From a virus: DNA of 64,000 bases. How positions within the stretch are numbered: the first letter of the stretch is position 1; each line of letters opens with the position of its first letter. Location of the stretch: the IMG/VR virus record IMGVR_UViG_3300036817_000162, one strand, 5' to 3'. The notes beneath the pieces are model-generated. The model searched no databases. It had not been told where the DNA came from and was given only the letters and a program-made list of their open reading frames with translations. The translations under genes and the position numbers were made by a program. Below are positions 298 through 51,986 of the stretch, piece after piece.

Positions 298-318
298 AGT
301 CTACCACACACATGTGAG
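298..318 (-). promoter_or_regulatory. palindrome-promoter copy 1
   Basis: minus strand CTCACATGTGTG-TGG-TAGACT (-10-like) then GAGAGAGGG RBS. Confidence 0.7.
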
Positions 319-339
319 GCGAGGTCTGGGGTAAAGGCC

Positions 340-1413
340 CTACCTTGCCAGCTTCAGCAGCGTACGGCTGACCTTCAGCGGCTTCCCGTCGGGTCCTTTT
401 ACGTACGGCCGGATCCAGGTGGCCGCCTTGCCGCAGACCGTGCAGACCTGCCGCTGGCTCTCCCCCGGCGCCTCCGGCACCACCGCGTGGTGCCGGAGGG
501 CGTCGTACTCCTCCAGGTGGCGCCAGTGGCCGGCTACCGGCCAGGTACAGGACCAGTCGACCTCCCGGTGCTCCCCGTCGCCCGCGTCGCCGTGGGTGAC
601 CCTGCGGAGCATGACCACCCGGACGTCGCTGTGCGACAAGGACCGCTCCGCGCGGCGGCGGATGCCACGGGGAATGCCCTCCGCCCGCTCGGTGACGGTG
701 ATCTCCATCCCCATGTAAATCCACAGCAGGTGAATCACGGAAAGTACCGAGGTGGCCTGCGTCGCGGGTCGCAGGCTTTCCGCGAGGTTCATGTCAAGCG
801 GGAGGATCGTGGTGTGGATCAGGGACAGGTCGCCTGACTCGCGGCGTATCTGCGGCGCGTGCTTCGCCGGCATCCGCCCGTCGGCCACGTCATCATCCAG
901 CAGCGTCCACACTGAGACCCGGGCGCACGGCCACAGCCGCGTCTCCCTCGGCGTGATGCCGTCTTCGGCCCCGTTGGTCCACGCTGAGGTCAGTGACCAG
1001 GACAGGGCCCGGACGTGGAACGGGTCGCCGAACTTGTCGACGGCCTCCCATGGGTCGTCGAGCCACGCGAAGCCGCGCGGGTACGGCATCTCCGCCCGGC
1101 TGATCCGCTCGGCCTGGCTGGTCCGGGCGGCGGTGTCCCTCATCGCGGCCACGATCTTCGGGGAGACCCGGCAGGTCACGGCGTCTACCAGGGTGCCGCC
1201 GAGCAGCCTGGAAAACTCCCACGCCTGGCCACGGGTAACCGGCACGCCGGGGCGCAGGTTCACCGGGTGGAACATGCCCCGGGCCCGGCCCAGGTCCTTG
1301 GTCACGGAGTCCTGCATGAACCTGTGGAAGAACACCGCCGTGGCTGTGGTCGGGTGAACGAGGTGGGCGGTCAGGGCCGCGTGCTGGTCGAGGACCGCCC
1401 CGTCGCTGGTCAC
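340..1413 (-). CDS. conserved-looking phage hypothetical protein (358 codons)
   Basis: GTG start overlapping upstream TGA; C-terminal GHWR...WIRPYVKGP motif typical of a phage family of unknown function. Confidence 0.7.
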   Translation of the reverse strand: MTSDGAVLDQHAALTAHLVHPTTATAVFFHRFMQDSVTKDLGRARGMFHPVNLRPGVPVTRGQAWEFSRLLGGTLVDAVTCRVSPKIVAAMRDTAARTSQAERISRAEMPYPRGFAWLDDPWEAVDKFGDPFHVRALSWSLTSAWTNGAEDGITPRETRLWPCARVSVWTLLDDDVADGRMPAKHAPQIRRESGDLSLIHTTILPLDMNLAESLRPATQATSVLSVIHLLWIYMGMEITVTERAEGIPRGIRRRAERSLSHSDVRVVMLRRVTHGDAGDGEHREVDWSCTWPVAGHWRHLEEYDALRHHAVVPEAPGESQRQVCTVCGKAATWIRPYVKGPDGKPLKVSRTLLKLAR

Positions 1414-1616
1414 CGGAGCCTCGCCCCCAGGCAGGCGCCCGCCGTGAACGCCGCGCCGAGGGCCGCCGCTGCCAGCAGCCGTGATCGCTGCCGGCCGCCG
1501 TGGTTCATCCTGCGCAGCTCCGCGCACCAGCCGCAGCGGCCCGCCAGGCTCAGTGGCAGGTCACCCATCCCGCAGGCGGCGCACTCACCTTTCAGCAGGG
1601 CTAGCGGGGCGTTCAC
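1410..1616 (-). CDS. small protein with CxxC pairs and hydrophobic C-terminus
   Basis: GTGA-coupled to both neighbours. Confidence 0.55.
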   Translation of the reverse strand: MNAPLALLKGECAACGMGDLPLSLAGRCGWCAELRRMNHGGRQRSRLLAAAALGAAFTAGACLGARLR

Positions 1617-1918
1617 GGCAGCTCCCAGACCTTACTGACCAGCGCAAGCAGCTCCGGGTAAGTGTGCAGGCTGCTGCTGATGTTCCATTCCTTGAGCCCG
1701 TGATGCCCCTTGCGGTGCGCGCGGACGGTGACTCGGGCGTAAGGCTGGTCATCGCGGGCCCAGCTGCTCCTCTGCGGCCCGGTCGGGGCTTCGGTAGTCT
1801 CCACGACCAGTCCAGTCACGATCATGGTGACGCGCGGCGCGGTCTGGACCTCGACCTGCTCGCTGTCGTCGAGTTCCACGGCGACGCGGCGGAACCTGTG
1901 ATCACCTGTGACCTTCAC
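1613..1918 (-). CDS. hypothetical protein
   Basis: GTG at 1918 with GGAGG RBS and GTGA overlap; true start lies inside the longer track ORF. Confidence 0.6.
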   Translation of the reverse strand: MKVTGDHRFRRVAVELDDSEQVEVQTAPRVTMIVTGLVVETTEAPTGPQRSSWARDDQPYARVTVRAHRKGHHGLKEWNISSSLHTYPELLALVSKVWELP

Positions 1919-2136
1919 GGTGCCTGTCCCTCCGCTAGCAGCTGCGCGAGTACCGCTTGGTCTTCGGTGCGGACCGCGTGGCGGACGCCCGGCTTGTCGG
2001 CGGGGACCACCACGGCGGGACCGATGTGCTCCCGCCACGCCTTGGCCTCGTGCTCGGCCTGGCCCTTGGTCATCGACCGTGACCCGATGACCCTGGTGCG
2101 GCCCTGGCGGATCGCGTAGTACCGCTCGCCGCTCAC
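1915..2136 (-). CDS. hypothetical protein
   Basis: GTGA coupling at both ends. Confidence 0.6.
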   Translation of the reverse strand: MSGERYYAIRQGRTRVIGSRSMTKGQAEHEAKAWREHIGPAVVVPADKPGVRHAVRTEDQAVLAQLLAEGQAP

Positions 2137-2381
2137 AGTGCCCTCCCCCCGCGCCTGGCCACGAACCTCGCACAAGCGCTGATGCCTGCCAGGAAGCCGA
2201 CGATCCCTTCCTTGGTGAGGAACTTGAGGATCTGCCCGTCACAGCCGACGATCCACTGCTCGCCGAGCGGTTCAGTGGGCAGCACGTACTCGATCAGGCC
2301 AGCCTCCTGGTATCCCCGAAGGCTCTCGTAAATCTCCTCGTCGGTGACCTCTGGCGGGTCGTCTGGCTGCGGCTGGTTCAC
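2133..2381 (-). CDS. hypothetical protein
   Basis: RBS GAGGAG; coupled stop/start. Confidence 0.65.
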   Translation of the reverse strand: MNQPQPDDPPEVTDEEIYESLRGYQEAGLIEYVLPTEPLGEQWIVGCDGQILKFLTKEGIVGFLAGISACARFVARRGGRAL

Positions 2382-2839
2382 TGGGTCTCCTCGGGGTTCT
2401 CGTCGAGGTCATCGAGGGGGCGGCGCTCAGGGTAGGACCAGTCGACCGGGGCGCGGCTGCCGTCACTGAACCGGGGGACCTCGTCATCGTCATCGTCGTG
2501 CGCCCCGGCGCAGTGCGGGTACGGGAGTCCCAGGCAGTCGCACAGCGAGACCGCGCCCAGGGTGTCCTGCCCGTCTTGGGTGAGCAGCGGCACCAGGCCG
2601 TGCTTGGCGATGACGCGGCGCCCTTCCAGGTCCCCGTACAGCTCGGCCCAGTTCCCGGGGCCGAACACCTCAACGACGCGGGCGCGGGCCGCGTCCCGGT
2701 TTTCCGACTGGAGGGTGACGTAGAAGCCGCCCAGTGGCATGCCCCGCTGCGGGTTGTGGTCGTCGTCGGCGGCCACGGAGCCGCCGTAGAGCCGGTGGCC
2801 TAGCCCGAACGTCACGTGCCAGGTCTTGGTGTCAGGCAT
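2378..2839 (-). CDS. hypothetical protein
   Basis: ATG 2839 after GGAGAGGAGG RBS. Confidence 0.65.
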   Translation of the reverse strand: MPDTKTWHVTFGLGHRLYGGSVAADDDHNPQRGMPLGGFYVTLQSENRDAARARVVEVFGPGNWAELYGDLEGRRVIAKHGLVPLLTQDGQDTLGAVSLCDCLGLPYPHCAGAHDDDDDEVPRFSDGSRAPVDWSYPERRPLDDLDENPEETQ

Positions 2840-3509
2840 CGCCTGCCTCCTCTCCTGCCTCGGGGGCGGCGATCGCCAGGAGGTTGTCGAGGGGGAGCCC
2901 GAAGCGCTGCTGCGCGGCGGCGGCCATCGCCTCAATGTCCGCCCGGGACTTCGCGACGACGTCCTCGGCGTGCTTGGCCAGCTGCTTGGACGCGTAGTCC
3001 ACGTTCGGGGCGGCGTTGTTGATCGCGGCCCGGAGCTTCGCGAGGGCCAGCTTCCTGAATGCGGCGGGCTCTTTATCGTTCAGCGCCTGCTCGTACGCCT
3101 CCAGGGCGTCCTTGGCGTCCTTGAATGCCTCCTCGGCTGCCGCGTGGACCTCGCTGCTGGTCAGGGCGAGGCGGGATTCCGGGTTGAGCCCGGGGCGGTC
3201 GCCGTGGTCGTAGCCGATCGTGACGGGGACGCCCTCGGTGCCGCCGCTGGCCATGAACGCGGCGAACTGCGCCATCGACATGTCGAACTGCACGAGCACC
3301 TTGTCCGGGAAGATCCGGTCGGCTTTCAGGTTCCGCTCGCGGGTCGCCTCGTACAGGGTGACCTCGATGTACTCGCCGTGGCGGAGGTCGGACTGGAACA
3401 GTACCGCCCCGGGGCTGGAGTAGACGCGGTTGAAGCGGGCCATCCCGAACGCGGGGTGGTGCTCGACGCCCCGTTCGTCCTTGACGGGGTCCTGGGTCTG
3501 CTTTGGCAT
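2832..3509 (-). CDS. conserved phage hypothetical protein
   Basis: HPAFG...LFQSDLRH...MSMAQFA...GVPVT motif; first gene behind palindrome-promoter. Confidence 0.75.
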   Translation of the reverse strand: MPKQTQDPVKDERGVEHHPAFGMARFNRVYSSPGAVLFQSDLRHGEYIEVTLYEATRERNLKADRIFPDKVLVQFDMSMAQFAAFMASGGTEGVPVTIGYDHGDRPGLNPESRLALTSSEVHAAAEEAFKDAKDALEAYEQALNDKEPAAFRKLALAKLRAAINNAAPNVDYASKQLAKHAEDVVAKSRADIEAMAAAAQQRFGLPLDNLLAIAAPEAGEEAGDA

Positions 3510-51601: not shown

Positions 51602-51602
51602 C

Positions 51603-51699
51603 GTGAGGGCCATCGGGCAGCTTCCTTCTCACATCCCGGTAGTCCCGGGATCGTACCCGCAGGGGAACGATCCGATTAGCCGCCCGGCTATCCCCCCGC
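51603..51699 (+). ncRNA. Y-RNA-like unit 3
   Basis: CCAT/GCTAT loop, CGGGCAGCT/AGCCGCCCG stem, TCCTTCT, internal hairpin ATCCCGG/CCGGGAT. Confidence 0.7.
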
Positions 51700-51704
51700 A
51701 AATC

Positions 51705-51837
51705 GTGAGGCCATGAGACGGCTTCCTTCTAAAGCTAAACCGCCGGTCGCGGGTTCAAATCCCGTCCGCCCCTTCGGGGGCGGTAGCTCAGGCTGGTAGA
51801 GCAGCGGTCTCAAAAATAGCTGTCTCGCTTTCCTTGC
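51705..51837 (+). ncRNA. YrlA-like RNA: Y-like stem carrying circularly permuted tRNA domain
   Basis: GAGACGGCT/AGCTGTCTC stem; T-arm GCGGG-TTCAAAT-CCCGT precedes acceptor-like CCGCCCC-TTCG-GGGGCGG and D-arm GCTC-AGGCTGGTA-GAGC. Confidence 0.85.
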
Positions 51838-51842
51838 CCAGC

Positions 51843-51896
51843 GAAAGGCCCTGGCGGCCCCGTACTCCCCAAGAGCGCGGGCCGCCAGGGCCTTTC
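51843..51896 (+). terminator. 18-bp perfect hairpin closing the RNA array
   Basis: GAAAGGCCCTGGCGGCCC / GGGCCGCCAGGGCCTTTC. Confidence 0.75.
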
Positions 51897-51959
51897 CCGT
51901 GCCCCTGGCGCGTCCCGCTTGCGCCTGCTTCACGGTGGCTGCTAGCCTCCGGCAGACGG

Positions 51960-51986
51960 TACCGTAACCACACATGTGAGAGAGGG
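51960..51986 (+). promoter_or_regulatory. palindrome-promoter copy 16 (fused to RBS)
   Basis: TACCGT-AA-CCACACATGTGAG-AGAGGG. Confidence 0.7.

Follow-up and report, generated by a model that had tools for sequence, protein, structure and literature searches.

A dispersed 22-bp dyad at the promoters of an uncultured soil actinobacterial phage: a probable operator and a candidate regulator

Networks in which one regulator acts at many dispersed sites have been documented in few actinophages, namely phiC31 and those of Cluster A, and the repeats of Cluster O are without a known binder. The phiC31 sites, treated by Ingham et al. in 1994 and by Wilson et al. in 1995, are reportedly conserved inverted repeats that lie between genes, by early promoters. 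A related layout exists in plasmid RK2, where KorA and KorB, small dimeric helix-turn-helix (HTH) repressors from an autoregulated operon, use identical palindromic operators at the -10 of many promoters. Genome-wide, phiC31 and L5 have 18-30 repressor sites (PMC4557955), and the stoperators of Cluster A phages (L5, Bxb1) are tens of dispersed repressor sites that silence many transcription units (PMC4557955, PMC9283540, PMC6550527). The phages of Cluster O (Corndog) carry more than 30 copies of an invariant 17-bp inverted repeat for which a dimeric binder has been predicted, and have neither an integrase nor lysogens (PMC4351075). In T4-type phages, the repeated early promoters of the PeSL elements border variable genes, and a modular shuffling of these genes has been proposed (PMC2839356, PMC4122927). 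Here we describe a dispersed palindrome in a 64,000-nucleotide stretch of DNA (the window) from the IMG/VR virus record IMGVR_UViG_3300036817_000162; a first-pass annotation had presented it as a set of 16 palindrome-promoters heading accessory gene cassettes under the control of one regulator.

The network resembles that of phiC31 in that both phages are actinobacterial and have many dispersed copies of an inverted repeat near promoters; the link to a phage regulator is here a prediction. However, phiC31 is temperate and its sites serve an immunity repressor, whereas G001, the closest relative of the present phage, has no integrase and no prophage relative was found in the searches described below. 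The repeat sequence also differs from that of phiC31, as probably does the candidate protein family. Stoperators are asymmetric 13-bp sites that are bound by a monomer, are oriented with transcription and block elongation, whereas the present sites are dyads on promoter cores. The Cluster O repeats are found mostly off predicted promoters and about one third of them in coding sequence, whereas the present copies are intergenic and linked to promoters. A PeSL consists of a promoter and a stem-loop (PMC4122927); in the window a stem-loop precedes some copies only, and the repeat is a dyad of the protein-binding type. With KorA/KorB the layout is shared, but RK2 is a plasmid and its proteins have no relation to the present ones. 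The layout is known from few actinophages; the motif and the candidate regulator are new.

In the window, CACATGTG occurs 13 times versus 0.83 expected, a number reached in 0 of 100 shuffles; TCACACATGTGTGA with up to two mismatches also occurs 13 times (0.11 expected), and the degenerate core YWCACNNGTGWR (YWCAC-NN-GTGWR) 18 times (0.74 expected). All 16 copies of the initial list are present (Table 1), and two further ones can be added, a spacing variant, CCCTCACGTGAGGG, at 18760-18775 and a possible copy at 51402-51413. The element had been taken to be 14 bp long; when the copies are oriented by the downstream gene and aligned, it proves to be a 22-bp dyad with the half-sites TACCTCACACA and TGTGTGAGGTA, the gene-proximal arm of which degenerates into a TAnnnT hexamer. 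The distal half is conserved like the proximal one, with C-6, C-4, A-3, C-2 and A-1 found in 13-14 of 14 sites. Fifteen of the 16 copies lie in the gaps between genes, which according to gene calls based on G+C at third codon positions (GC3) represent 7.5% of the window; the description of the palindrome as always intergenic fails only for the copy at 48806-48827, which overlaps the end (~25 nt) of an open reading frame with a weak call. The near-identical 31-bp block reported for four copies (15963, 16831, 18715 and 43593) is also present, with no more than two mismatches, and two of these copies are alike over about 55 bp; most copies share only 12-14 bp. Where the right half is GTGAG, which fuses the dyad to a Shine-Dalgarno (SD) sequence, the left half is the matching CTCAC in three of four cases. 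The last palindrome of the window ends at 51,985, immediately ahead of the head genes.

Several identities of the repeat were considered and dropped. The centres of all window copies would fit a restriction site ACRYGT, but those of G001 (CA, TA, CT) do not. A role as an RNA hairpin is at odds with the position of the dyad, mostly upstream of the inferred start, and with a self-complementarity of only 12-14 bp. The NrdR box, the CRP/FNR site and the RecA-NDp/PafBC motif have the wrong spacing or orientation; NrdR boxes, which end in the same ACAC/GTGT, exceed the dyad by 6 bp, and in CRP-type sites the half-sites are in the reverse arrangement. A literature search for the motif string returned nothing relevant.

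The -10 hexamers and start sites given here and below are sequence-inferred. A strict TAnnnT hexamer directed toward the downstream gene is found between +5 and +11 relative to the dyad centre in 11 of the 16 copies, and two other sites have near misses (TATAGC, TACAAA); the background is ~4.5% per site, and a hexamer occupies the mirrored position, away from the gene, in 5 of 16. The extended -10 noted in the first-pass annotation was recovered, since a TGn read by eye stands directly ahead of the hexamer in 9 of 13 sites, and so was a second architecture, in which the hexamer precedes a palindrome that is fused to the SD, at three sites (13510, 28813 and 51974). An SD of the GAGAGAGGG type does follow 14-15 of the 16 sites, but it is general in this phage and not specific to the palindromes. 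The long form, GAGAGAGGG(A), precedes many genes that have a real upstream gap, for instance at 34425, 44515 and 49180, and is also present in G001; by our own base-pairing, GAGAGAGGG can pair with the extreme 3' tail of the actinobacterial 16S rRNA, with two G-U pairs. No sigma70-type consensus pair of -35 and -10 separated by 16-18 bp was found in positions 1-20000. At copy 12, the message (43195-43228) is probably leaderless, judging from the short distance between hexamer and start codon.

Besides the TAnnnT promoters, a second type is combined with the dyad. An exact GGAAT-N18-GTT is present at five window copies (15957-15984, 16825-16852, 18709-18736, 43579-43606 and 46233-46258), and GGAAT-N17/18-GTT occurs in G001 at 74730, 95631, 117783 and 119637, in all cases at dyads. 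Every intergenic match (five in the window and three in G001) is located at a palindrome, the one at 95631 of G001 being dyad-linked but called coding, and L102 and L104, two of the relatives described below, add three more cases of such a promoter with a dyad. The GTT is placed at +6 to +8 from the dyad centre, or within the distal arm, the dyad lying in the 18-nt spacer or directly behind the GTT. GGAAT-N18-GTT is the published SigR consensus (PMC2375139). This is a hint that these SigR/SigH-type promoters may be read by a host stress sigma factor, which would be needed because no recognisable sigma factor is encoded in G001.

Table 1. Copies of the palindrome and other features of the window
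Feature	Position	Strand	Remarks
Copy 1	302-323	-	core CTCACATGTGTG; TGG-TAGACT -10; SD; heads gene 1-274
Copy 2	3542-3563	-	CACACATGTGTG; TGA-TAACTT -10; GC hairpin before; heads gene 2832-3509
Copy 3	6915-6936	-	TGG-TACGAT -10; heads gene 6328-6879; dyad also at orthologous G001 promoter (84398)
Copy 4	13500-13521	-	CTCACATGTGAG; -10 (TATAGT/TATTAT) upstream; dyad fused to SD; heads unit reaching YqaJ/RecT
Copy 5	15956-15977	-	31-bp block; dyad within spacer of GGAAT-N18-GTT (15984 down to 15957)
Copy 6	16824-16845	-	31-bp block; GGAAT-N18-GTT and TATAGT
Copy 7	18708-18729	-	31-bp block; divergent junction; heads candidate regulator gene; on opposite strand, TAGTAT toward gene 18839-19042
Extra spacing variant	18760-18775		CCCTCACGTGAGGG; same junction as copy 7
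Copy 8	25415-25436	+	CACACGTGTG; half-sites 2 bp closer; TATGAT -10
Copy 9	25712-25733	+	strong hairpin before (-46.5 kcal/mol); TGA-TACAGT; heads gene 25788-27173
Copy 10	28803-28824	+	CTCACATGTGAG fused to SD; TATCCT upstream
Copy 11	39415-39436	+	TGA-TATAGT; heads unit with large terminase (40819-42444)
Copy 12	43207-43228	-	one mismatch; TACACT, then 7 nt to ATG at 43195; no SD
Copy 13	43586-43607	+	31-bp block; GGAAT-N18-GTT (43579-43604) and TATAGT
Copy 14	46254-46275	+	CTCACATGTGAG; GGAAT-N18-GTT (46233-46258) ends in distal arm, dyad at about +1; poor TACAAA only
Copy 15	48806-48827	+	CACACGTGTG; TACCAT
Possible extra copy	51402-51413	+	CTCACTAGTGTG; in last codons of gene 49197-51425; then TAGGGT/TATGCT
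Copy 16	51964-51985	+	fused to SD; TACCGT upstream; heads gene 51999-52802
g45, candidate regulator	18375-18677	-	100 residues; two long helices and C-terminal HTH
RecT and YqaJ exonuclease	9.4-11.5 kb		
Replication initiator and DnaB helicase	19.8-22.4 kb		
Small and large terminase subunits	large subunit (TerL) 40819-42444		
Mu-type portal	53.4 kb		

The relatives of this phage in IMG/VR form a family of 125-131-kb genomes. The closest of them, G001, is complete, with terminal repeats, and has 125,950 bp; it has 24.6 kb in common with the window at 70-85% identity. Roughly half of the genes are also shared, though not all in the same order. The network is also present in G001, with at least 15 sites, all but one of them located at 58-125 kb, which is the non-structural half of that genome. 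Its element has the halves TACC-n-TACAC-n and n-GTGTA-a-GGTA, and the two genomes differ at position ±6, which is C:G in 14 of 14 window sites in both halves, whereas in G001 it is T:A in all 14 proximal halves and in 10 of the 14 distal ones. The start of the TAnnnT hexamer is at +6, +8, +9 or +10 from the dyad centre in the window, or upstream of it, and in G001 at +5 (14 of 14). Dyads orthologous to copy 9 were found in G001 (67448) and in a further relative, L101 (6235). In other members, the core is absent from G002, G003 and G005 and occurs once in G006, and a reversed control pattern gave 0 everywhere; a search of IMG/VR with the exact long motif gave no match.

It is probable that the palindrome is the operator of some dimeric protein. 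It is read as an operator and not as a promoter element because the distal arm, which lies in the spacer, is conserved like the proximal arm, RNA polymerase making few base contacts in the spacer of sigma70-type promoters; because position ±6 has changed symmetrically on both arms between the window and G001; and because the register to the -10 varies and the dyad is combined with two promoter types. The name of palindrome-promoter is thus not appropriate, since the promoter elements and the palindrome can be told apart. A single dimeric regulator is the simplest explanation of the symmetry, the switch at ±6, the varying register and the two promoter types, so that the proposal of one regulator for many dispersed cassettes holds in this part; nevertheless, the cassettes are not only accessory, given that the headed units include the core genes for RecT/YqaJ and TerL.

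A different function for the dyad would be that of an intrinsic promoter element or of an activator site that replaces the -35, in the manner of MerR-like, MotA-like or Mor/C-like proteins, so that the network would be switched on. The promoters do lack a -35, the right arm provides the TGn in about 9 of 13 sites and in G001 contains the TAnnnT itself, and the weak fold matches of the candidate regulator include a sigma region 4 and the late activator C of Mu. However, activators that bind in the spacer or at -30 to -41 need a fixed register and none is seen, the distance to the -10 varying by at least 5 bp, for which reason MerR-type activation was dropped; in four to five sites the dyad coincides with the inferred start or lies beyond it, where activators that need a fixed geometry could not work. 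One dyad serves two different promoter types, and G001 encodes no recognisable sigma factor. With this evidence, an activating element seems improbable.

Turning back to an operator, we lean, by a small measure, toward the dyad being bound by a dimeric regulator encoded by the phage, probably a repressor, for which the best candidate is the product of the gene that we call g45; the sites are shown here with their placement, symmetry and conservation, whereas binding, sign and identity of the regulator are all inferred. According to this model, a dimeric phage protein would bind the dyad over or just downstream of most of the non-structural promoter cores. The promoters themselves would be of host type, with a TAnnnT -10, often a TGn and no -35, and a subset would be of the SigR/SigH type. 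The dyad centre would be about -22 to -17, or near +1, from the inferred starts and hence inside the polymerase footprint, so that a bound dyad would exclude RNA polymerase; repression is the simplest reading because a site centred at ~-22 to +1 falls within this footprint. The protein would then be a global repressor, acting in feedback or in the temporal shut-off of early and middle units, and g45, as the first gene behind the dyad of the divergent junction, would be autoregulated.

The position of g45, next to the replication genes, is accompanied by structural features that would suit a dimeric DNA-binding protein. In Pfam, g45 matches DUF6362 below the cut-off and HTH_23 weakly. An exhaustive search found relatives in 383 protein clusters at E <= 0.001, all of them small; one g45 relative, P0001, is 92% identical. 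The AlphaFold model (predicted local distance difference test, pLDDT, 94.6) shows two long helices followed by a helix-turn-helix. Foldseek with this model found nothing at E <= 0.001; the best VIA-align matches (Z 5.0-5.7) are DeoR, Fis, SigL region 4 and Mu C, all weak and all HTH DNA-binding, and KorB is another weak fold match (Z 4.5). Searching solved structures with the g45 profile gave marginal HTH matches only, RelI being the best (E = 0.013). A two-copy model reached a score of 0.79 versus 0.01 for the best of three controls, and so passed the homodimer mark; in the calibration, this mark was reached by 20 of 30 proteins with a solved structure as a pair of one chain, but by only 1 of 23 with a single-chain structure, counts that apply only approximately to a user-supplied alignment like the one used here. 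At least 94% of the contacts agree between the dimer runs, and the pLDDT of the partner is at least 86; the interface is built from residues 10-74, and the last helix takes no part in it.

The distribution of the gene is similar to that of the dyad. A dyad was found directly upstream of the g45 homologue in 9 of 11 lineages (the window, G001, L101, L102, L103, L104, L105, L108 and L110). Seven intergenic dyads were counted within 20 kb of L104, which has a g45 of 52% identity, and three in L106. The window and G001 have both g45 and the network, and neither is found in G002, G005 and G006, genomes that were picked through another gene; G003 has no network, and only a marginal 33-residue HTH match to g45. 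Among the four proteins first proposed as binders (7458, 18375, 18839 and 27355), the one at 18375, g45, is the best supported by synteny, co-absence and the homodimer model, and nothing singles out the other three. Nevertheless, several points weigh against this interpretation. L106 and L109 have g45 without a dyad upstream of the gene; the L-numbered loci were found via g45, so its presence there is by construction; and the co-occurrence of g45 and network is confounded by shared ancestry within one clade. The half-site CWCAC is the same in lineages in which g45 is 40-50% identical and differs in its last helix (P0008, P0010). There is no clean covariation of protein and DNA, because the half-site stays constant where this helix differs, and the binder could instead be a conserved factor of the host or some other protein of the phage. 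Lastly, there is no established rationale for a phage that lacks an integrase to carry repressor sites at nearly all of its non-structural promoters. The assignment of g45 as the protein that binds the dyad is put forward as tentative, with somewhat less than even probability.

Binding by a host factor or by another phage protein, with g45 simply leading a regulated operon, is unlikely in our judgement, although part of the evidence fits it. A more conserved binder would agree with a constant CWCAC in the face of a diverging g45. The other candidates in the phage are two ribbon-helix-helix (RHH) proteins (18839-19042 and 7458-7649), a Xis/MerR-like HTH protein (27355-27687) and a weak MarR-like one (8210-8758); the first of these reads as RHH, lies next to two dyads at the same junction and has a G001 counterpart with 71% identity, and the window, G001, L101 and L104 all have a conserved 27355 protein. 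However, the RHH gene is not found in the dyad-bearing 20-kb junction loci of L104, L106 and L108. As for the host, no factor with such a site could be named; the window and G001 have different forms of the dyad, and related phages recovered from similar soil samples lack it.

It had also been suggested that the repeats serve as points for cassette shuffling. In its strong form, the copies would be chiefly recombination substrates, similar to PeSL, through which RecT/YqaJ would swap cassettes by means of 30-55 bp of shared promoter sequence, regulation being secondary. The phage does encode RecT and a YqaJ exonuclease, four copies have the 31-bp block with two of them alike over ~55 bp, and gene 2832-3509 together with its own dyad has been relocated relative to G001. 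Gene order is broken at six of seven informative motif junctions (6:1 against kept) versus 9 of 20 elsewhere (9:11); however, this enrichment is weak and not significant (Fisher p = 0.09, two-sided), and the comparison rests on G001, the sole whole-genome relative, which is too diverged and mosaic for a fair test, most junctions being different anyway. The analogy with PeSL did not hold, since the 60-nt segments preceding the sites fold no better than random 60-mers of the window (mean -22.7 versus -20.9 kcal/mol, p = 0.33); clear upstream hairpins are found only at 3552, 25722 and a few other sites and are not general. Most copies share only 12-14 bp, and recombination leaves unexplained the dyad symmetry and the conservation at orthologous promoters. 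Shuffling as the principal role is accordingly very improbable.

As to the phage itself, the window has 69% G+C and ~127 short genes in dense packing, directed leftward until 18.7 kb and rightward beyond. No close relative at the DNA level was found among GenBank phages, and the relatives of the terminase and portal are distant, with no more than 38% identity. Searches of IMG/VR with gene 58 and DnaB recovered G001, one distant genome and nothing else, and the scan of one metagenome a single 8.7-kb relative. No known RNA families or tRNAs were detected in the window. For positions 12801-22800, the sequencing runs listed comprise no RNA data and two soil-metagenome DNA runs, one of them probably the source. 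In G001 there is no match to tyrosine integrases (PF00589) or large serine recombinases (PF07508), and among 185,579 bacterial and archaeal species genomes there were no prophage relatives of g45. The lineage looks lytic, because G001 lacks integrase, recombinase and sigma factor and g45 has no relatives in the species genomes. We regard the phage as an uncultured soil actinobacterial phage with a genome of roughly 126 kb. The gene at 27916-28416 has a weak match to DUF397 (E = 2e-4), a domain typical of Streptomyces and relatives, which gives a small hint at the host group.

Other observations concern the genes and gaps around the sites. The protein of 25788-27173 (461 residues) has no Pfam match; L104 and L106 have DUF932 genes of similar size and place, which show no tblastn similarity to it. 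The genes 13739-14128 and 15360-15929 both match a single gene of G001 (74791; 61% and 75% identity, respectively), indicating a module duplicated in the leftward arm. The possible copy CTCACTAGTGTG could be the promoter of the adjoining 570-bp non-coding stretch. A probable replication origin is the 470-bp non-coding region without palindrome (19287-19756) that extends from the junction to the replication initiator gene; L104, L106 and L108 have a gap of ~480-520 bp in the corresponding place. A second, unrelated repeat consists of TGCACGTGCA and GTGCA units ~11-12 bp apart and is located at 53318-53365, directly upstream of the portal gene, as it is in many relatives; weaker forms are found at 35339-35370 and 42749-42758. 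In G002, a motif of this class is a 22-bp palindrome with five to six intergenic sites, often followed by CGGCTAnnnT, and G003 has four to five sites. Possible roles of this repeat are those of a late promoter, an activator site or a site related to packaging.

Taken in its widest form, the picture would be that of a clade of uncultured, apparently lytic soil actinophages whose whole non-structural programme runs on host-type promoters, those of the thiol-stress (SigR) type included, gated through the dyad by the g45 family of DUF6362-like dimeric HTH proteins, so far uncharacterised, with the repeats serving also as points of RecT exchange; this whole combination is distinctly unlikely, and we offer it as a speculation. 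The conservation of the dyad across lineages with a g45 of 40-50% identity, together with one symmetric change of specificity, is evidence that the operator is older than the individual promoters beneath it. To the few dispersed networks documented in actinophages, the present one adds a testable pair, a 22-bp dyad and a candidate protein of 100 residues. If this pair is confirmed, it would represent a compact set of repressible promoters for high-GC actinobacteria, and would help to annotate the transcription units of a large group of uncultured soil phages.

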